DNA from: an uncultured Acidimicrobiaceae bacterium
GTDB lineage: Bacteria; Actinomycetota; Acidimicrobiia; Acidimicrobiales; Ilumatobacteraceae
DNA: 64,000 bases
NCBI GenBank assembly: GCA_963825605.1
Contig: CAWGTY010000014.1
Coordinates: 117,924 to 181,923, forward strand
Reading direction: 5' to 3'
A program made the translations under genes and the position numbers. The notes below the pieces were generated by a model, which saw only the letters and a list, made by a program, of their open reading frames with translations, was not told the DNA's origin and ran no database searches. Shown here piece by piece: positions 5,150-35,790 of the stretch; positions within the stretch are counted from its first letter, which is position 1; every line of letters starts with the position of its first letter.

Positions 5150-6655
5150 ATGACGAACCACTCGAACCGTGTTCGAGTGCGCCTCGCGTTCGTCGCGATG
5201 TGCGTCGCAGCACTCGCAACCCTCGGATGGTCGACGACGGTCTCGGCCCACACCGACTTCGAAGCATCCGTCCCAGCTGACGGCGTCACAGTCGACGGCC
5301 CACTGTCCACCGTGACGGTCGAGTTCACCAACCCAGCCGTCGAATCCGGCGACGGATTCCAGTTGCTCGAACCCGATGGCACCGTCCGCACCCCTGAATC
5401 GCTCGACCCGACCAACGGCACATCGTTCGTCGCGACGTTCACCCCAGCACTCGAGGCCGGCACGTACGGGTTCCGGTGGGAGGTCCAGGCCGGCGACGCC
5501 CACCCGCTCCAAGGATCGTTCCAGTTCACCGTCACGGGCCCGCCCACGACGACGACGGCACCGTCCGCGTCAACGCCGGTCACGTCGGCGCCGGCGGCCA
5601 CGCCGGCGGTGTCATCGCCTCCGACGACAGAGGTTGATCACTCGACGATGGCGATGGACGAGTTCCTGGCGGACACCGACTCACCCGGCCCGTTCTTCGG
5701 TCGTGCGGCCCGCACGATCTCGATGACATCGACGGTGTTCGCGGTCGGTGTCATCGCTGCGCTCGCCTGGGTCATTCGCGGCCGACGCGATGAACTCGAA
5801 CGACTGCGGGGATGGGTGCGCCTCGCCGGGCTCGGCCTACTCACGGGCGGCCTCATGGCGCTGGCGGCACTCGACGAAACCCAGTCAGATCCTCTGACCG
5901 AGATCGTCACGACCAAACCCGGCGTCGCGGCGTTCTTGACGATGGCAGCCGGTGTCCTCGTCGTTGCCGGTTTCGGGTCATCCGCGGGCAGGATCGCCGG
6001 ACTGCCCCGCCCATTGTCCGCCGCCGTGGCGGTCGATGAACTCACCACCAAGCGACCCGAGCGCGCCGCCGAGCCCGACACCGCCCCTGAGAACGGCGCC
6101 CTTCGTTGGGTGCCTGACCGCACGGCAGCGGTCGGCGTGACCGGGCTCGCGTTGGCCCTCGCCGGGTATTGGTTCGATGGACACACCGTCAGTCGGGGGC
6201 CGTGGATCGTGCATGGCGCGGTCAACCTGGTGCACGTCGCAGCTGCGTCGGTGTGGGTCGGGGGTGTGTTCGCGATGACGTTGGTGGCGTGGATGCGAAC
6301 GCGCCGGCGCTCCGAGACCGACCTCGGAGCGATGGTGGTCCGCTTCTCGACGATCGCCGGGATCTCCCTGGCGGCACTCTCCGGCGCCGGGCTCGTCATG
6401 GCGTGGCTGGTGCTCGATGCGCCGGGTGACCTGTTCTCGACCGATTGGGGTCAGGTGCTGCTGGTCAAGGTCGGAGTGGTCGCACTCGCGGCCGGACTCG
6501 GCGGCTACAACCACTTCGTTCTGCGCCCCGCGCTCGAGTCGAGGCGTGACGATCCCGGTCTCGCCGTCCATCTGAGACGGTCGCTGTTGGTCGAAGCGGC
6601 CGTCATGGCTGTCGTCGTCGTCATCACCGCGGTTCTGGTCGCATCGAGCACCTGA
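5150..6655 (+). CDS. copper resistance CopC/CopD fusion protein (YcnJ/CutJ-like)
   Basis: Signal peptide ending AHTDFEASVPADG (N-terminal His of CopC), GDAHPLQGSFQFTV, Thr/Pro linker, CopD TM region with GHT, HVAAASVWVGG, WGQVLLVKV, GGYNHF. Confidence 0.9.
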   Translation: MTNHSNRVRVRLAFVAMCVAALATLGWSTTVSAHTDFEASVPADGVTVDGPLSTVTVEFTNPAVESGDGFQLLEPDGTVRTPESLDPTNGTSFVATFTPALEAGTYGFRWEVQAGDAHPLQGSFQFTVTGPPTTTTAPSASTPVTSAPAATPAVSSPPTTEVDHSTMAMDEFLADTDSPGPFFGRAARTISMTSTVFAVGVIAALAWVIRGRRDELERLRGWVRLAGLGLLTGGLMALAALDETQSDPLTEIVTTKPGVAAFLTMAAGVLVVAGFGSSAGRIAGLPRPLSAAVAVDELTTKRPERAAEPDTAPENGALRWVPDRTAAVGVTGLALALAGYWFDGHTVSRGPWIVHGAVNLVHVAAASVWVGGVFAMTLVAWMRTRRRSETDLGAMVVRFSTIAGISLAALSGAGLVMAWLVLDAPGDLFSTDWGQVLLVKVGVVALAAGLGGYNHFVLRPALESRRDDPGLAVHLRRSLLVEAAVMAVVVVITAVLVASST

Positions 6656-27685: not shown

Positions 27686-28234
27686 ATGACGAATCGACTC
27701 ACCATCCACCGTTCCACAACCTCAGCCGGGCACGCCGCTGCGCCGCTCGATCAGAAGCCTGGTCGACCGGTGTGGGCAGCCCGCGTCGCTCAGGTCCTGA
27801 CGGGGGCACTCGGCTTGTTCTTGATCTCGTCGGGGGCTGCCAAGTTCGGCGGCGGACACGTCTTCCAGTACGTCGAGCACCGATCGGGGATCGACATCTT
27901 CCACCCGTTCGCGAACCATGTCGTCGGTGTCGCCGAGGTGATGGCCGGGGTGCTCGTGCTGTTGCGTCGTACTCGGTTTGCGGGTTCGATGATCGCATCG
28001 GTCCTGATGGTCGGCGCCGTCGTGTTCCACCTCTCGCCCTGGCTCGGCGTGTCGGTGCCCACCGGACTCACCGATGGTGCGACCGCGCCGTGGTCCGCCG
28101 ACGACTTCGAGGCCACGACCACCGCCGTGCCGTTCGTCCTCGCGATCATCACCGGCATCGGCTCCCTGCTGCTTCTGCACAGCGCGTGGCGCACCCGGAC
28201 CGGCACGTCGACCACGACCTTCCCGGCCGAGTGA
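27686..28234 (+). CDS. DoxX-like membrane protein
   Basis: Four hydrophobic segments, GAAKF, VGVAEVMAGVLVL, GAVVFHL; GAGG before ATG 27686. Confidence 0.7.
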   Translation: MTNRLTIHRSTTSAGHAAAPLDQKPGRPVWAARVAQVLTGALGLFLISSGAAKFGGGHVFQYVEHRSGIDIFHPFANHVVGVAEVMAGVLVLLRRTRFAGSMIASVLMVGAVVFHLSPWLGVSVPTGLTDGATAPWSADDFEATTTAVPFVLAIITGIGSLLLLHSAWRTRTGTSTTTFPAE

Positions 28235-28314
28235 GTTGGGCGATGCGGTACCGGCCAGAGCGCTCCGATCGGATCGGTACTCTCGGATACGGGACGCTTG
28301 AGGGAGGGCCGGCC

Positions 28315-29490
28315 ATGGTGAACGAGCGCAGTCGGCGAGACGCTCCGGTCGGCCGGCTGCCGCGCGTGTGGTCGGCGGTCGCAATCGCGAGCGTGCTGGC
28401 CGGCCTCGTCATGACGTTCGATCCCGACTTCGGCAGCGTCGGCTCCACCGTCGTGACGCTGATCCCGTTCCTCCTGCTCCCGATCATCGGGATCGCGGCG
28501 CTCAGCCTGCCCGAGCGAGGTCCGTCGTCCGGGTTGACAGTCATGGCGATCATGGCGATCGCCGGCTGGGCCGTCCTGGTCGTCGACGACGACCGCTGGT
28601 CGATCCTCACGTTCGCGCTGCTCGGGCTGTGCTTCTCCGTCGAAGGAGTGATCGGCGTCGTCCTGGCGCTGGCCGCCACCACGATCTGGACAGCCGCGTG
28701 GATCGACGACGGCGTCGACGGCTGGCGGCTCCTCATCCCGGCAGCGGTGTTCGGCGCCGGCGTCGTGCTGTGGTCGACGCTGCGGCGCGCGGAGATCGAG
28801 AGTGCGGCGCTCGCCGCACTGCTCGAGCGGCTCGAGTCGACGCAGGCCGAGCTCGCGGCGGCCGAGCACGAGCGCGGCATGCTCGCCGAGAGGGCCCGCT
28901 TCGCCGGGGAAATCCACGACACCCTCGCCCAAGGCTTCACCTCGATCGTGGTGCTGGGCCGAGCCGCCCGACGCACCGGCAACCCCGCTGATGCACTGCT
29001 CGAGATCGAGACCGTCGCCGAGGAACACCTCGGGGCGGCACGACGACTCGTAGCTGCGGCGGGGCCCGCCGATCTCGAGTCGCTGTCGCTTCCCGACGCG
29101 ATGCGCCGACAGCTCGATCGCACGATCGACCCTGCCCGTACGACCGCGCACTTCGCCGTCGACGGCGTCGCGACCCACCTGCCGGCCGAGGTCGAGGTCA
29201 CACTGTTCCGCGGACTCCAGGAGACACTGCTCAACATCCGCAAGCACGCCGAGGCGACCATCGTGCACGTCACCCTCAGCTACCTCGGTGACCTCGTCGC
29301 ACTCGACGTCCGCGACGACGGACGCGGCTTCACCAATGGAGCCGTCGCCGACCACGGCGACCTCACCGGTGGGCAAGGGCTCCGAGCGCTGCGGCATCGA
29401 GCCGAGACCCTCGGCGGTGCGCTCACGATCGAGCCAACGCCTGCAGGCGGCGCAGCGGTGTCGCTGCAACTACCGGCGGTGACGTCGTGA
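28315..29490 (+). CDS. HisKA_3 sensor histidine kinase (NarX/DesK-like)
   Basis: N-terminal TMs, ERARFAGEIHDTLAQGF H-box, QETLLNIRKHA N-box, DDGRGF, GQGL. Confidence 0.92.
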   Translation: MVNERSRRDAPVGRLPRVWSAVAIASVLAGLVMTFDPDFGSVGSTVVTLIPFLLLPIIGIAALSLPERGPSSGLTVMAIMAIAGWAVLVVDDDRWSILTFALLGLCFSVEGVIGVVLALAATTIWTAAWIDDGVDGWRLLIPAAVFGAGVVLWSTLRRAEIESAALAALLERLESTQAELAAAEHERGMLAERARFAGEIHDTLAQGFTSIVVLGRAARRTGNPADALLEIETVAEEHLGAARRLVAAAGPADLESLSLPDAMRRQLDRTIDPARTTAHFAVDGVATHLPAEVEVTLFRGLQETLLNIRKHAEATIVHVTLSYLGDLVALDVRDDGRGFTNGAVADHGDLTGGQGLRALRHRAETLGGALTIEPTPAGGAAVSLQLPAVTS

Positions 29491-30119
29491 TCACCCTGTT
29501 GATCGTCGACGACCATCCGATCGTGCGCAGCGGGCTCGCCGCGCTCCTCGGCGCCGAGGACGACATCGACGTCATCGGCGAGGCCGGCAACGGAGCCGAC
29601 GCCGTCGCTGCCGCCCTTGCGCTCCGGCCGTCGGCGACGCTGATGGACCTCCGCATGCCCGGCGTCGACGGCGTCGACGCGATCGCCCAGATCACGGCCG
29701 AGTGGCCCGACGCCGCGATCGTCGTCCTCACCACCTACGACACCGACGAGGCGATCGTCAGAGCGATCGAAGCCGGCGCCTCCGGTTACCTCCTCAAGGA
29801 CGCACCAACCGAATCGCTGCTCGACGCAGTCCGACGCGCCGCAGCTGGTGAGACCGTGCTCGCCCCACCCGTTCAACGCCGCCTCGTCCAACGGGTTCGC
29901 GACCCCGAGGCAGGTGCGCTGTCCCAACGAGAGATCGAAGTCCTGCGCGAAGTCGCGTCCGGCCAGACCAACGCCGAGATCGCCGACCAACTCCACATCA
30001 GCCAGGCGACCGTCAAGACCCACCTCCTCCACATCTACGGCAAGCTCGGCGTCACAGACCGAGCCGCCGCCGTCGCCCGCGCCTACGAGACCAGCATCCT
30101 CTCCCGACGCCACGGCTGA
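29487..30119 (+). CDS. NarL/FixJ family response regulator
   Basis: VDDHPIVR, LMDLRMP, GYLLKD, LuxR HTH; GTGA overlap with the kinase. Confidence 0.95.
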   Translation: MITLLIVDDHPIVRSGLAALLGAEDDIDVIGEAGNGADAVAAALALRPSATLMDLRMPGVDGVDAIAQITAEWPDAAIVVLTTYDTDEAIVRAIEAGASGYLLKDAPTESLLDAVRRAAAGETVLAPPVQRRLVQRVRDPEAGALSQREIEVLREVASGQTNAEIADQLHISQATVKTHLLHIYGKLGVTDRAAAVARAYETSILSRRHG

Positions 30120-30624: not shown

Positions 30625-31473
30625 TCAGTCCAACAGCACGTCGTCTCGACGGCCGGAGCGCTCGTAGTGGATGGGGAGGACCTTGCCGTACAGCTGACGG
30701 CACCGTTCAGGGGTCGCCACCATGTCGGGCTGATCGACGTAGGAGAAGATACCGACGTAGCGTGGGCGAGCTCCGGCGAGGGGAGCGACACGGTGCAGGC
30801 TGTGTCGTCCGAGGAAGATCTGTAGGTCGCCCGGCTCGAGTATCAGGGTGCGGACCCGGTCGGAGGTGCCGTCGAGTACGTGGGTGACCGCGTCGAAGTG
30901 TTCATCGTCGGCGGTGCGGATGTTCGGCGCGTACTCGAACTCGCCGCCATGCTCTGCGACTTGGATCGCGAGCGTCACGGTGTAGTCGTTGGTGTCAAAG
31001 TGCCACGGGAAGCCGGGGCCGGCCCCGGCGCTGTTGATGATCACGTCGGCGAGCGGGTCGGCGTAGCGGTGGAACGGGTCGGCTTGGAGGCAGTCGCGGA
31101 TGAACTCATCGAACCCTGGCGTGTCGTAGACACCCCGCAGCGGGCTGCCGGCGACGAAGCGGTCGGCCGCGACGAACGCGTTCGACCGGTCGTAGAACCG
31201 GCGCGCCGGATGCCCCTTCGGCAGTGCCTCGTCGTCGTGGGTGAAGTAGGCGTTGGTGCGGGTGTAGGAGCGATGGGCGTGGGGCGCGACCGCGTCGGCC
31301 TCCGCAACGAGCGCTGTGACGCCCGCCGGGGTGAGGATGTTCTCCACGACCGCGCACCCGTCAGCCGTCAGCTCGGCGCGCACCCGCGACACCAGCGCCG
31401 CGTACTCGACGCTGTCGGGCCGGTCAATCGGGATCGCGTCGGCGTCGAGGAAGGGGTTGCTGGCACGAATCAT
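30625..31473 (-). CDS. 2OG-Fe(II) oxygenase of the HalD/BesD-like family (HxD, probable hydroxylase)
   Basis: FPWHFDTNDY, GGEFEY, LEPGDLQIFLGRHSLHRV; start ATG 31473. Confidence 0.75.
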   Translation of the reverse strand: MIRASNPFLDADAIPIDRPDSVEYAALVSRVRAELTADGCAVVENILTPAGVTALVAEADAVAPHAHRSYTRTNAYFTHDDEALPKGHPARRFYDRSNAFVAADRFVAGSPLRGVYDTPGFDEFIRDCLQADPFHRYADPLADVIINSAGAGPGFPWHFDTNDYTVTLAIQVAEHGGEFEYAPNIRTADDEHFDAVTHVLDGTSDRVRTLILEPGDLQIFLGRHSLHRVAPLAGARPRYVGIFSYVDQPDMVATPERCRQLYGKVLPIHYERSGRRDDVLLD

Positions 31474-31957
31474 CGGTTTGCTCCCAACGCACCGTAGCCG
31501 TCGACTCGAACCGGTGGCTGTTGTTCCGTCCGAGCCGAAGAGTCGCTTCCGAGCGTACTCAACCTCGGTGCTGTGGACCCTTCCCCCGCTCAATCGAGGC
31601 TGCGCGACGGGGTCGCGGGCGCGCTCGTCGGTCGGTTCGCGAAGGCGGAGGCATCCTCGGTATCGCCGCTCGTACGCCACTGCCGCGGTCCGGCCGTCCA
31701 AGCCAGAGCGCGGGGACGATGTCGACGTCGCGAGGTCGAGCTCTGCGTTGGCTACCGCATCGACCACACGTGCATCGAGGGTCGCCGATGAGCCGGGCTC
31801 GAGTGTCTCGACGCCGTGACGGAACTGCGCCGGCGAAACGCAACCGGGTGGGCTGCGAGCGGGTGTCGGCCCTCAGGAGCCGGCCACGGTCCGTCGTCTC
31901 AGCGGGGACCGTGTCCGACTCCGGGGCGTGGGAACACCGACGTGGTTTGGCGGACCC

Positions 31958-32737
31958 TCACGCGATGTCGAGGCGGTGGGCGAGTGAGCGGTAGTCGTCG
32001 GCGCGGAGGACCGAGCGCGCGAGTTCGACCACGCCGGCGAACGCCTCTGCGGGTGCGCTGGAGTGCATGGCGGAGAGGAGGTCGAAGCGGTCGTCGATGT
32101 TCATCGCCGGCAGCATCAACGCGAGCGACTTGACCATGTCGTCGGCCGGGATCGACGACACGATGGCCACGTTCAACTCGACGGTTGCGTCGACCCCGAT
32201 CGCCGCTTCGAGGGCCGGCATGAGTACCCGCTCTTCGATGTCGATGTGGGTGAGGTACTCGCTGACGAATCGAGCCAGGTCGAGGTGCAGCAGGTGGACG
32301 TCTCGCCTCGCTGTCGCGTTCGATGCCTCGAACGAGACTGCCATGTCGGCGATGCGGGCGATCGTCCGGTCGAGCGCGAGGTGGTCCTGCTCGATCCGCT
32401 CGGCGAGCACGGGCAGCTCGCGTTCGAGGACCGGTTGGATGAAGGCGTCCTCGTGATGGGCGTGTCCTTCGAGCAAGGCATGCGTCGCGACGACGTGATC
32501 AACCAGTGCGCGTACGCCGTCGCGTTCGTGGGGGTCGACCGTCCCCGCCCGTTCGACGACGGCGAACAGCTCGCTTCGGATGCCCTTGTGGACGTCGCGA
32601 TACAGGTCGACGGCGACGAGGCCGAAAGTGTCGGATGCCGGCGACCACGCGGTCAGCGGGCTGGGGAGCGTCCGGGGGTCGTTCGAGCGAGTTCTGTCAA
32701 CGACGCTGGTGTCGGCGTCGGCGTGGGTCATGGTCAT
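31958..32737 (-). CDS. hemerythrin-domain protein
   Basis: DVHKGIR, HAHHED, EQDH, YLTHIDIEE His/Glu di-iron ligand pattern. Confidence 0.85.
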   Translation of the reverse strand: MTMTHADADTSVVDRTRSNDPRTLPSPLTAWSPASDTFGLVAVDLYRDVHKGIRSELFAVVERAGTVDPHERDGVRALVDHVVATHALLEGHAHHEDAFIQPVLERELPVLAERIEQDHLALDRTIARIADMAVSFEASNATARRDVHLLHLDLARFVSEYLTHIDIEERVLMPALEAAIGVDATVELNVAIVSSIPADDMVKSLALMLPAMNIDDRFDLLSAMHSSAPAEAFAGVVELARSVLRADDYRSLAHRLDIA

Positions 32738-32881
32738 GGTGGTGCCTTTCTGGTCTCGGTGGCCCGCTTGTCGGACCCCACCCCACGATGACGGCTCTCA
32801 GCGTGCGCCGTTCCTGAAAACGTCGTAGCGTTATCGGCACTTGTCCCACACCAACCGGCACGGAATCTGAAACGGGACCGC

Positions 32882-33352
32882 ATGGACGGCGATGACTACT
32901 TCGCAGCACTGTCGTGCCTGCTGGACGACGGTGTCGGGTTGCTGATCGGAACCAGCGACGCCAATGGCGTGCCGCGCGCTGGTCGGGGATGGGGCGTCCG
33001 CATGGACGACCGGTTCCTCCGAGTCGTCATCGGCGCCGACGATCCGATCCTGGTCGCCAATCTCGATGACGGACACGTGGCCGTGACCGGTGCCGACGTA
33101 CGTCGACTCCGGTCGGCGCAGCTCAAAGGGCGTGTGGTTGCGGTCGGGGAGCCCGACGACGAAGATCTCGCTGCCGCCGATGAGCACACCGCGGCGTTCT
33201 TGACAGCGATCTTGGAGACGGACGGAACCGAGTACGAGCTGACCAGCCGCATGTTGCCGCGTCGGATGCTCACGGTCGTGGTCGAGGTCGACGAGGGGTT
33301 CGATCAGACCCCGGGCCCGATGGCTGGTGCCCCGATCCCGGAGTCGAGATGA
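32882..33352 (+). CDS. stand-alone FMN-binding split-barrel (PNPOx-like) protein
   Basis: IGTSDANGVPRAGRGWG, NLDDGHVAVT, RSAQLKGRV, FDQTPGPMAG; ATGA overlap with the next gene. Confidence 0.75.
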   Translation: MDGDDYFAALSCLLDDGVGLLIGTSDANGVPRAGRGWGVRMDDRFLRVVIGADDPILVANLDDGHVAVTGADVRRLRSAQLKGRVVAVGEPDDEDLAAADEHTAAFLTAILETDGTEYELTSRMLPRRMLTVVVEVDEGFDQTPGPMAGAPIPESR

Positions 33353-34752
33353 TCGACATCGCTGGACCGGACCAGTCGAGTGAGGAGCAACTCACGCTCG
33401 CTCGCCTCCAACGCTGCTACGAGGGCGGGGTCCCCGCGGTCGTCTGCACAGTTGACGCAGAGTGTCGTCCGAACATCACCTACATCTCGCGGGTGCACCA
33501 GGTCGACGAGAACCGGGTGGCGATCTCGAACCAGTTCATGTCGAAGACGTCCCGCAACCTCGCGGTCAATCCGCTGGCCAGCCTGTTGCTCATCGACCCG
33601 GTGACCTACCAGGAGTTCCACCTGCAACTCGTCTACGAGCGCACCGAGCGTCGCGGCCCGGTGTTCGAACGGCTGCGCGACGATGTCGATCAGCTTGCCG
33701 AGGACATGGGCTTGCACGGGGTGTTCAAGCTGCGCGCTGCGGACATCTTCCGTGTCATCGGCATCGCCTCGACGCAGCCGAGTCATCGGGAACCGGAGCC
33801 ACACGACCATCCACCGACGCGCTCGCTCGACGCGCTCGCCGAGTTCGCCCTGATGATCGACCGCTCGTCCGAACTCGACACGGTCATCGACACCGCTGTC
33901 CGGGGCATCGACACCGTACTCGGCTATCACCACGTCTCGCTCCTGCTGCTCGACGAGAGCAGTTCACGGCTCTACACGATCGCGAGCCGAGGTTTCGAGG
34001 ACGCCAACATCGGTGCCGAGGTCACGCTCGGGGACGGAGCCATCGGCCGGCCACTCGCACGGTGTGCCGTGCACCGGACATCCGGGCTGCGGCAGGCTGC
34101 CAAGTACTCGCGGAGCATCCGACGCTCGTTCGAGGAGTCGGGCCTCGACGCCGGGTCGGTCCTCCCGCTCCCGGGTCTCGCAAATGTCGACAGCCGCATC
34201 GTGGTGCCGATTCGGGGCCTCGGGCAGCTGATCGGCGGGATTGTCGTCGAAGAGCAACGAGTCGCAGCGTTCACTCAGGTGGACGAACACGTTCTCACCG
34301 CAGCGGCGACGATGCTTGCCGGGGCGATCGAAGCCGCGGTCGGAACCGAACGGGACGCCCCGGCGCCAGAGCCCGAGCCACGCGGGACGACACCGCCACC
34401 CACCCCGACGGTCGACGCGATCACCATTCGACACTTCGCCGTCGATGGCAGCGTATTCGTCGAAGGCGACTACCTGATCAGGGGTGTCGCCGGCCGGATA
34501 CTCCGGGCGCTTCTCGCGACGCACCTCAGCACCGGTCGCGTCGACTTCACCAACCGGGAGCTCCGCCTCGACCCGTCGTTGGATCTCCCCGGCTTCAAGG
34601 ACAACTTGGAGAGCCGGCTCACACTCCTCCGGCGGCGACTCGACGAACGATCGGCGCCTTGCCGGATCGAGAAGACCGGCCGCGGACGTTTCCGCCTCGA
34701 CGTCCTGCACCCGATCCTCCTCGACGACGTCGACGACCGCACGACGGCGTGA
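33349..34752 (+). CDS. split-barrel + GAF + winged-helix one-component regulator
   Basis: N-terminal PNPOx-like (PAVVCT…PNITYIS…AISNQFMSKTSRNL), central GAF (LLLLD…LYTIASRG…GDGAIG…VPIRGLGQLIGGI), C-terminal wHTH-like (GVAGRIL…FTNRELRLD…NLESRLTLLRRRL…EKTGRGRFRL). Confidence 0.8.
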   Translation: MIDIAGPDQSSEEQLTLARLQRCYEGGVPAVVCTVDAECRPNITYISRVHQVDENRVAISNQFMSKTSRNLAVNPLASLLLIDPVTYQEFHLQLVYERTERRGPVFERLRDDVDQLAEDMGLHGVFKLRAADIFRVIGIASTQPSHREPEPHDHPPTRSLDALAEFALMIDRSSELDTVIDTAVRGIDTVLGYHHVSLLLLDESSSRLYTIASRGFEDANIGAEVTLGDGAIGRPLARCAVHRTSGLRQAAKYSRSIRRSFEESGLDAGSVLPLPGLANVDSRIVVPIRGLGQLIGGIVVEEQRVAAFTQVDEHVLTAAATMLAGAIEAAVGTERDAPAPEPEPRGTTPPPTPTVDAITIRHFAVDGSVFVEGDYLIRGVAGRILRALLATHLSTGRVDFTNRELRLDPSLDLPGFKDNLESRLTLLRRRLDERSAPCRIEKTGRGRFRLDVLHPILLDDVDDRTTA

Positions 34753-34960
34753 CGCCGCGTCGACTCAGCCTCGATCCACAGATTGGGATCTGGCGATCGG
34801 GTGTCGGTGGCTGGAATCGGACGATCCCGCGCTGTTTGCCGGCGTGACGCCCGGGATTCTGCGTGGTGAAGTGTGTGTTCGGGTGTGTGTGGGTGCCGGA
34901 GGCGGCCTCGATTCGCGGTCGGGTCGAGCGCCCGATGACGGGCGTTCGCCGTCCGTTCGC

Positions 34961-35362
34961 TCAGCTCGTGGAGAGCATCGCCAACGGTGCGAGCGGCACG
35001 ATGCCTTCCGCCTTCGCGGCCAGCGTCGGGTCGATCGTGATGAGTGCGTCAGCCTGGAGTTGGCACACCGCGAGATACTCGGCATCGAACGTCGTGTCCC
35101 ACCCGTTGGCGCGTGCGATCTTCCACGCGGTGCGACGTGACACGCGATCCCCGAGTAGCCGCATCTTGAGCTCTGTGAAGCGCTCGTGGTGCCGGAACGC
35201 AGCTTCTTCGGTGATGTCGCCGTTGCGCACTTCGTCGAGCAGCAGGGACAGCGCTTGGGAGCGGATGAGATTGGGAGCCACGAGTTGATGATCAGAATCG
35301 ATGTCGAGGTCGTTGGCAACGATATGGAGCAAGGTCCGAGCGTCGATCACGTACCGGGCCAC
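34961..35362 (-). CDS. PIN-domain (VapC-like) protein, orphan
   Basis: YVIDA, DAEYLAV, ITID acidic PIN residues; no small antitoxin gene upstream. Confidence 0.75.
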   Translation of the reverse strand: MARYVIDARTLLHIVANDLDIDSDHQLVAPNLIRSQALSLLLDEVRNGDITEEAAFRHHERFTELKMRLLGDRVSRRTAWKIARANGWDTTFDAEYLAVCQLQADALITIDPTLAAKAEGIVPLAPLAMLSTS

Positions 35363-35447
35363 GTGCCCACCGTACATCCGGGGTCGGCGACCTCGAGCAG
35401 CGCCGCCGATCCGGCTGGTGGCATCCTCGTCGGTTCACCGCGGCCGG

Positions 35448-35790
35448 TCAGCTCGCGGGGTCGTACTGGAACGCGCGCAGTTCCTGCGCGCATCGGCAGG
35501 CGACTGCGTTCTTCGCTGCCCATTCCAGTGCCGGCTCGCGGGAGGGCAGCTCGAGCACGTTGTAGCCACCTTCGATCTCCTTCGTCTGCGGGTACGAGCC
35601 CTCAGTCACGGTCCCGTCGCCGGCGACCAGGACGAGCGGAACGTTCTCGTCGATGCCGCCGCCGAACACCCAAACCCCGGCGTCCTTCGCCTCTTGCACG
35701 ACGGCGTGCGCCGAATCCGCGACCGCCTTGCAGATCCTCGTCGGGAACGACCATTGCACCACCGGGGAAGGAGATCAGGTATTTCGTCAT
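35448..35790 (-). pseudogene. YciI/DGPF-like protein, frameshifted
   Basis: MTKYLISF…EDLQ then AVADSAHAVVQEAKDAGVWVFGGG…EGSYPQTKEIEGGY; extra A near 35727. Confidence 0.75.

Follow-up and report, generated by a model that had tools for sequence, protein, structure and literature searches.

Does a pair of genes that faces a hemerythrin-like gene across a 144-bp gap encode a system that controls it? This question is raised by a locus in the genome of an uncultured Acidimicrobiaceae bacterium, at positions 31,958 to 34,752 of the 64,000-nucleotide stretch of DNA analyzed here (contig CAWGTY010000014.1; hereafter the window). The hemerythrin-like gene is divergent from two genes in tandem, which encode a small protein of split-barrel fold and a large protein possessing a split barrel, a GAF domain and a further C-terminal domain. 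An earlier note on this DNA had proposed that the barrel protein and the barrel-GAF-winged-helix protein regulate the hemerythrin gene. The proposal was borne out in part: the pairing of the two genes, gene fusions, linkage to the hemerythrin gene and a conserved candidate operator speak for it, whereas the CTTGTC sites named in it did not stand and the hemerythrin turned out not to be obligatory. Our results suggest, with a probability of about 70%, that the large protein is a one-component activator with an obligate barrel partner, and that it drives a hemerythrin promoter without a -35 box.

The paired barrel genes and the linked hemerythrin gene

All three open reading frames (ORFs) placed by the earlier note were found at their coordinates, and the small and large genes, which it had read as translationally coupled, overlap by ATGA at 33349-33352. 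The features of the three genes are as follows.

31958..32737, minus strand: hemerythrin-like gene, 259 amino acids (aa); Pfam PF01814; predicted regulatory target
32882..33352, plus strand: small split-barrel protein gene, 156 aa; fold from AlphaFold2 and Foldseek; putative partner of the regulator
33349..34752, plus strand: large regulator gene, 467 aa; PNPOx-like barrel, GAF and a C-terminal domain of OmpR/PhoB-like predicted topology
33349..33352, plus strand: ATGA stop/start overlap, read from the sequence; the TGA of the small gene overlaps the ATG of the large gene
33397..33771, plus strand: regulator domain 1, PNPOx-like split barrel, aa 17-141; Pfam PNPOx_N and Foldseek
33826..34356, plus strand: regulator domain 2, GAF, aa 160-336; Pfam GAF and GAF_2, PDB profile match and Foldseek
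34420..34731, plus strand: regulator domain 3, predicted OmpR/PhoB-like winged helix, aa 358-461; AlphaFold2 topology, no Pfam family

The gene neighbourhood was surveyed in 85 loci, which were scanned with hidden Markov models built from the three window proteins. Of 80 species loci, 79 have the small gene as the immediate upstream neighbour of the large gene; the one remaining locus is truncated. The two genes overlap in 48 of 75 orthologous pairs, and the overlap is 4 nt long in 40 of these. The pairing of the two genes is obligate, mostly with an overlap. Furthermore, a search with the C-terminal domain alone retrieved two in-frame fusions of the small and large proteins, P0220 (648 aa) and P0230 (638 aa). 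They belong to different clades, the proteobacterial type in one case and the Acidimicrobiia type in the other, and so the two fusions arose independently. A fusion was also seen in the DNA of a Lautropia locus (L090, 3434-5380). Such fusions are Rosetta-stone evidence for a predicted interaction of the two proteins.

The small ORF had been read as a PNPOx-like barrel. Although the Pfam model PNPOx_N (PF01243) misses it (13.6 bits, below the cut-off of 28.1), the fold was assigned correctly. The AlphaFold2 model, prepared from a 53-sequence alignment, is a split barrel with a predicted local distance difference test score (pLDDT) of 91 and a predicted template modelling score (pTM) of 0.86. 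In the Foldseek search of this model against the PDB, all 112 matches at E <= 1e-3 were PNPOx-type split barrels; the best of them were HupZ, the F420 reductase MSMEG_3380 and Rv2074 (E 3e-8 to 1e-6). A PDB profile match to 2htd was obtained at E 1.4e-3. Q80, K82 and a C-terminal QTPGPxAG motif are invariant in the small protein. Its first ~85 residues align with the barrel of the regulator (hhalign E 1.5e-4, probability 52%), and this profile match is compatible with distant paralogy of the two barrels. Because barrels of the PNPOx type always dimerise and have their cofactor sites at the interface, the simplest reading is that the small barrel and the regulator barrel would form a heterodimer.

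The order of a PNPOx-like barrel and a GAF domain in the large protein is as the note had read it, and both domains score above the Pfam cut-offs (PNPOx_N, residues 29-89, 33.1 bits against 28.1; GAF, PF01590, residues 175-327, 28.8 bits against 22.4). In the AlphaFold2 model of the regulator (pLDDT 89.5; pTM 0.85), the barrel superposes on HupZ and on barrels binding flavin mononucleotide (FMN), with a Foldseek target TM of 0.73-0.77; the value for HupZ is 0.75-0.77, with a root-mean-square deviation of ~3 A. The barrel contains the conserved motif S-x-Q-F-x-S-K-T-x-x-N-x3-N-P, in which K66-T67...N70...N74-P75 would be compatible with binding of FMN, F420 or haem at a dimer interface. Since the family extends over many Proteobacteria, which mostly lack F420, a family-wide cofactor is more likely to be FMN or flavin adenine dinucleotide (FAD), or haem, than F420. 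As for the GAF domain, a PDB profile match to the PtsP GAF domain (3ci6) was found at E 1e-12, and the Foldseek target TM was 0.8.

No Response_reg match was detected in the Pfam scan of the regulator, and its N-terminus consists of the PNPOx-like barrel and GAF; the protein was therefore rejected as a two-component response regulator, which requires an N-terminal receiver domain. Likewise, no AAA+ or Sigma54_activat match was detected in Pfam, and the GAF domain is followed by a linker of ~20 residues and then by the C-terminal domain. Thus, a nitric oxide (NO) sensor of the NorR type (GAF-AAA+-HTH), which possesses a central AAA+ domain, was also rejected.

For the C-terminal domain, the note had proposed a winged-helix-like output. 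The predicted topology agrees with this, and is OmpR/PhoB-like, but neither Pfam nor the PDB gave a sequence match. In the AlphaFold2 model, residues 358-461 are arranged in the order of three short strands, helix 1, a strand, helix 2, a loop, helix 3 and a hairpin (pLDDT mostly >90). OmpR/PhoB effector domains contain a sheet, helix 1, a strand, helix 2, helix 3 and a wing in this order. The last ~115 residues of the regulator gave no match in Pfam or NCBIfam, no OmpR-family chain was retrieved when the domain was used for a PDB profile search, and a PF00486 scan of the window's genome found 31 other copies, the regulator gene not being among them. An initial hhalign comparison gave just a 31-column match (E 0.024); with the DNA-binding domains of OmpR proteins from this genome, an in-register alignment of helices 1-3 and the wing was obtained (P = 0.01). 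In the Foldseek search with the whole regulator, which was dominated by the other two domains, the top 50 matches comprised nothing but GAF, phytochrome and barrel structures. With the C-terminal domain alone as query, 888 clusters at 50% identity were obtained, mostly of the standard architecture or fragments.

Two of the proteins carrying this output domain have other architectures. In P0233 (852 aa), the domain is placed after a STAND NTPase-TPR (MalT-like) module, and P0150 (249 aa) consists of two tandem copies of the domain and nothing else. In MalT-type regulators, the DNA-binding domain sits after the STAND-TPR module. The architectures of P0233 and P0150 agree with a domain that would bind direct repeats as head-to-tail dimers. 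Judged from its sequence relatives, the C-terminal domain is a putative mobile output module without a Pfam family. We infer from the predicted model that it works like an OmpR-type winged helix; because the sequence evidence of OmpR kinship is weak, it was not assigned to Trans_reg_C.

The divergent gene had been read as that of a di-iron hemerythrin, and the reading is correct: the PF01814 match lies above the cut-off (E 4e-10, 40.7 bits against 25.3), and the ligand residues are conserved. In an alignment of 32 orthologues, the ligand set is H50, H92-x3-E96, H119 and H164-x3-E168; H92, E96, H119, H164, E168 and E169 are invariant, and H50 is conserved in at least 90%. The protein comprises the HHE di-iron domain and a conserved C-terminal extension of ~80 aa. 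Among solved structures, the hemerythrin domain of FBXL5 is its nearest relative (E 4.5e-11 over ~155 residues), with YtfE as a distant second. Membership of the RIC/YtfE/DnrN iron-sulfur repair family was rejected, since the scores were 17-19 bits against NCBIfam equivalog cut-offs of 204-300. An AAAGG ribosome-binding site is found 9 nt 5' of the ATG of this gene.

A word-indexed protein search gave more than 2842 relatives of the large protein, all of the same full-length architecture, and the protein is encoded in at least 543 species when one genome per species is scanned. The hosts belong to the Acidimicrobiia (Ilumatobacteraceae, Microthrixaceae and Aquihabitans), Chloroflexota, Acidobacteriota, Myxococcota, Bacteroidota and Proteobacteria, at least six phyla, and the proteobacterial hosts include Cupriavidus, Thauera, Noviherbaspirillum, Acidovorax and Albimonas. 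Cupriavidus pinatubonensis and Acidovorax delafieldii 2AN are cultivable carriers of the module. The public names of the large protein, such as "GAF domain-containing protein" and "adenylate cyclase", are generic.

The hemerythrin gene is adjacent to the pair in 63 of the 85 loci. It is divergent and upstream in 47 of these, mostly in Acidimicrobiia, and convergent and downstream in the other 16, which belong to Proteobacteria and Acidobacteriota. Since the linkage survives this change of gene order, it is good evidence of a functional tie. Beyond the trio, the neighbours differ from locus to locus: clustering of the flanking ORFs found nothing shared, apart from lineage-local genes for E1 dehydrogenase, seen in 7 proteobacterial loci, and a GGDEF gene that a few Acidimicrobiia have in common. 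Thus, the co-occurrence expected in the note is strict for the small and large genes, whereas the hemerythrin gene, linked in two different orders, is a frequent and not an obligatory companion.

A candidate operator upstream of the hemerythrin gene

The note had also pointed to the orthologous intergenic regions as a place for a motif search. In the divergent loci, the regions between the hemerythrin and small genes carry common motifs. In the convergent loci, it is the hemerythrin gene that these motifs precede, and not the regulator genes. The motifs form an array of four direct repeats with 11-bp spacing, the consensus of which, read towards the hemerythrin gene, is ~TTAGGAA / TCTTAGCA / CTTACG / TTTCAGGA. 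In both gene layouts, the last repeat is located ~20 nt upstream of the -10 box of the hemerythrin gene. The -10 hexamer reads TAnnnT in Proteobacteria, and in Acidimicrobiia it is CACGAT or CATCGT. The corresponding elements in the window are as follows.

32806..32851, minus strand: candidate operator, four direct repeats with 11-bp spacing; 46-nt position weight matrix
32844..32850, minus strand: repeat R1, TGTGGGA, distal, degenerate
32834..32841, minus strand: repeat R2, AGTGCCGA, distal, degenerate
32824..32829, minus strand: repeat R3, GCTACG, promoter-proximal, good
32811..32819, minus strand: repeat R4, TTTCAGGAA, promoter-proximal, good
32785..32790, minus strand: candidate -10 hexamer CATCGT of the hemerythrin promoter, putatively assigned by alignment with other clades

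No -35-like hexamer was found 16-19 nt upstream of the -10 hexamer in any clade, and a sigma-70 consensus scan of positions 31800-35000 gave no complete promoter. The lack of a -35 consensus and of a sigma-70 consensus promoter fits dependence on an activator.

The sequences that seeded the first matrix had also served to train it, and the array was therefore validated across clades; the window sequence was outside every training set. When a matrix built from the 16 convergent loci alone was run over ~9 kb of each divergent locus on both strands, its best match was correctly oriented and fell 5' of the hemerythrin gene in every case (41 of 41). In the reverse test, the matrix trained on divergent loci succeeded at 16 of 16 convergent loci. 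Furthermore, when the combined 46-nt matrix was run over the 5.24-Mb genome of the window, positions 32806-32851 on the minus strand were the single best of 10.5 million positions, with a score of 19.0. The sites of the nearest relatives (L001, L002 and L004) are similar to that of the window and likewise degenerate distally. The array is a conserved candidate operator at the hemerythrin promoter. The window's genome appears to hold one such site, which fits a local, single-promoter regulator.

In the window, the promoter-distal end of the array is 30 nt before the ATG of the small gene. Because the array stops so close to this gene, the promoter of the regulator operon must overlap it, and autoregulation is therefore likely in the divergent layout.

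The CTTGTC sites, which the note had offered as possible operators, do occur twice in the gap (32767 and 32840), but not more often than by chance, and they are not conserved. The window contains 18 copies against 22 expected, so that CTTGTC is not enriched and was rejected as an operator. In the 144-nt gap, 5 repeated hexamers were counted against 3.0 in shuffled sequences (p = 0.22), and the pair of CTTGTC sites is common only to a 91%-identical relative. Both copies are part of a 17-nt direct repeat, CTTGTCGGACCCCACCC / CTTGTCCCACACCAACC, at 32767-32783 and 32840-32856 (76% identity, 73 nt apart). One copy of this repeat follows closely after the putative -10, and the second shares positions with the distal repeats of the array; the 17-nt repeat is a lineage-specific curiosity.

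About one-fifth of the loci do not contain the hemerythrin gene. A clear hemerythrin orthologue was present elsewhere in just 3 of the 20 genomes with such a locus. In Noviherbaspirillum galbum (L125), the translocated hemerythrin gene retains the repeat array. In ten further loci, the array precedes genes other than that of the hemerythrin (L066, L067, L073, L077, L070, L083, L094, L069, L026 and L071). These genes encode a FAD_binding_4 oxidase in four Chloroflexota loci and Albimonas, a small c-type cytochrome in two Thauera loci and one Burkholderiales metagenome-assembled genome, an ODP-family di-iron protein of the metallo-beta-lactamase fold in L026, and a small COX1-like/DUF2871 membrane protein in L071. 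As far as these sequences tell, the regulated output is interchangeable and would always be a redox or metal-cofactor protein. Such outputs point to a signal related to O2, NO, peroxide, iron or haem.

Two further observations were made on the placement of these elements. The large gene and the hemerythrin gene of L064 are separated by a DUF2871-like gene (weak Pfam match, E 0.0045). In three Noviherbaspirillum loci without a hemerythrin gene (L080, L082 and L093; ~5326-5463), the array is directly 3' of the regulator gene, points back into it, and is followed by E1 dehydrogenase genes. These arrays may be left over from a convergent hemerythrin gene that has been lost.

As for the surroundings of the locus in the window, a HalD/PhyH-like ORF of the Fe(II)/2-oxoglutarate-type dioxygenases (30625-31767, minus strand; Pfam HalD E 3.5e-10) is located downstream of the hemerythrin gene. 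Its true start is probably well within the maximal ORF of 380 aa, and it is not kept beside the module in other loci. Just 3' of the regulator, a weak PIN-domain ORF (34961-35377, minus strand; E 0.06) and a YCII-domain ORF (35448-35762, minus strand) are found, neither of which is conserved in related loci. Upstream of the region (27772-30119, plus strand), a histidine kinase ORF is found that runs into the start of a 210-aa ORF resembling, by eye, a NarL/LuxR-type response regulator; these are unrelated to the module in other genomes.

Proposed mechanism and alternative explanations

Based on these results, we propose the following mechanism. The 467-aa protein would be a one-component transcription factor, the input of which is a PNPOx-type split barrel and GAF, and the output of which is a receiver-less, divergent OmpR/PhoB-like winged helix. 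The 156-aa protein would join the regulator, most likely in a heterodimeric barrel with a flavin or haem cofactor. The winged-helix domains are predicted to bind head-to-tail to the four repeats spaced 11 bp. The last repeat would then occupy the -35 position, and RNA polymerase would be recruited to the -35-less hemerythrin promoter by class II activation, which is also the mode at pho boxes and SARP targets. The activity may be gated by the cofactor of the barrel pair, by a GAF ligand, or by both, and the FBXL5-like di-iron hemerythrin would be activated on a redox, O2/NO or iron/haem signal. In this scheme, we infer DNA binding by the C-terminal domain, activation and not repression, the heterodimer, the cofactor and the signal.

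Several results weigh against this proposal. The C-terminal domain gave no significant HMMER match to Trans_reg_C, to Pfam (26 isolated domains) or to PDB sequences, and its profile-profile match to OmpR domains is weak (hhalign probability 4%). The window's site is also weak, at 19 bits against 40-50 typical, and a matrix built from Proteobacteria only does not rank it first in the genome. In ~13 of the 20 genomes with a hemerythrin-less locus, no hemerythrin orthologue was found anywhere, so that the hemerythrin is not obligate. Moreover, the module is patchy in the genus of the window, with one intact copy among 19 genomes; the remaining genomes of the genus have divergent regulator fragments at 44-50% identity. 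This patchiness suggests gain by transfer or frequent loss. In three genomes of the genus (G005, G009 and G017; loci L007-L014), the regulator copies are split over several frames or contain an in-frame TGA. The broken copies may be assembly errors, pseudogenes or a separate lineage of the system.

Other explanations of the same locus were considered. The small barrel could be an enzyme or antagonist that makes, destroys or sequesters a ligand of the regulator (haem or a flavin derivative), or that titrates the regulator. The nearest folds are indeed those of HupZ, which binds or degrades haem, and of F420/FMN reductases; the small protein also has invariant motifs (QLKG and QTPGPxAG) that differ from those of the regulator barrel, and the similarity of the two barrels is weak, as given by the hhalign values above. 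However, the translational coupling in most lineages and the two independent fusions favour a stoichiometric complex, as do the obligate dimers and interface cofactor sites of PNPOx-type barrels, and we consider a separate role of the small barrel rather unlikely. The same proteins and operator could also act in repression, if occupancy of the -35 region blocked RNA polymerase until the signal released the regulator. This would suit an array that overlaps the position of the -35 box and that, in the divergent layout, also lies over the promoter region of the regulator operon, at a distance of 30 nt from the ATG of the small gene. Nevertheless, the -35-like hexamer is missing from every clade and a sigma-70 consensus promoter from the scanned part of the window, and the repeat layout is that of PhoB- and SARP-activated promoters, in which direct repeats of the same orientation abut a -35-less promoter. 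Repression is thus an improbable mode of action.

The hemerythrin itself may be part of the sensor, an iron/O2-sensing protein like FBXL5 that feeds back on the pair in a three-protein circuit. The best solved relative, the hemerythrin domain of the iron- and oxygen-sensing FBXL5, the conserved C-terminal extension and a linkage that outlasts gene rearrangement are in favour of such a role. Many genomes, however, possess the pair without such a hemerythrin, and the operator then precedes genes of a FAD oxidase, a cytochrome c or an ODP-type di-iron protein, which fits an interchangeable output; the sensor role seems quite improbable. Finally, the pair could be a metabolic or haem-handling enzyme complex, with a C-terminal domain that does not bind DNA and with repeats that belong to another factor. 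The domain has no significant sequence match to DNA-binding families, and the JGI names "adenylate cyclase" and "PNPOx superfamily" carry no regulatory meaning. Against this explanation, the array tracks the neighbourhood of the pair across phyla and gene orders, and the best-scoring site of the window's genome, the one genome scanned as a whole, falls in this very gap. The predicted topology is OmpR-like, and the domain is modular, being found after STAND-TPR in one protein. An enzyme complex of this kind is hardly credible.

Significance and comparison with known systems

One-component regulators are the main means by which bacteria sense their state, and the present family, found in hundreds of species, goes under generic names. 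Its hosts extend from Acidimicrobiia of soil and freshwater as far as Cupriavidus, Thauera and Acidovorax. The family would add a new sensor design, in which a split barrel is combined with a separately encoded partner barrel, and a new, phosphorylation-free branch of OmpR-like DNA-binding domains. Through it, the physiological role of bacterial FBXL5-like hemerythrins would become directly accessible to genetics. Since the candidate operator and promoter are mapped to the base and cultivable hosts are known, the hypothesis is directly testable. For the wider claim, that the proteins form a phylum-spanning one-component class with a heterodimeric flavin/haem barrel sensor and GAF, a Pfam-less OmpR-like branch as output and a single-promoter regulon of interchangeable redox-metalloprotein outputs, we consider the chances to be about even. 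If true, it would indicate a circuit, responsive to O2, NO or iron, that has so far gone unrecognised.

In the note, no regulator of this architecture was known to have been characterised. This agrees with the literature searched, in which no paper on this architecture or these proteins was found, the protein accessions of cultivated members included.

The best structural matches to both window barrels are HupZ/HutZ/HugZ and the F420/FMN split barrels (Rv2074 and MSMEG_3380), which are dimeric and bind cofactors. In contrast to the window proteins, however, they are enzymes or haem-binding proteins without DNA-binding or GAF domains, and their identity to the window barrels is 15-22%. The FBXL5 domain shares the H/E di-iron ligand pattern with the window hemerythrin. 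FBXL5 is a eukaryotic F-box protein in which the domain works via protein stability, whereas the window protein is a stand-alone bacterial protein with a different C-terminal extension.

A functional analogy is offered by NorR and NorA/YtfE, in which an NO-responsive GAF regulator has a hemerythrin-type di-iron output. NorR, however, has the order GAF-AAA+-HTH and is sigma-54 dependent, whereas the window regulator contains no AAA+ domain.

The window regulator resembles the PhoB/OmpR effector domains (PF00486) in its predicted topology and in its candidate target, direct repeats of 11-bp spacing in place of the -35 box of a promoter with a -10 box only, and gives a weak in-register profile match to them. 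PhoB/OmpR proteins possess a receiver and are controlled by phosphorylation, whereas the input of the window regulator is a split barrel and GAF with a separately encoded partner, and its output domain is too divergent for the Pfam model. SARP proteins (wHTH-BTAD; ActII-ORF4 and AfsR) use a receiver-less winged helix of the OmpR type on direct repeats of 11-bp periodicity beside the -10 box. In large regulators, the SARP winged helix is joined to STAND NTPase-TPR modules, as is the window-type output domain in P0233. However, the winged helix of SARP is N-terminal and followed by BTAD, whereas that of the window regulator is C-terminal and has no BTAD, and hhalign of the C-terminal domain against the SARP domains of this genome was not significant (E 0.7). 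As a one-component regulator and as an OmpR-like activator on direct repeats, the proposed system belongs to already known kinds. Its novelty lies in the design of the sensor, in a free barrel subunit that is obligate and in an output domain without a Pfam family.

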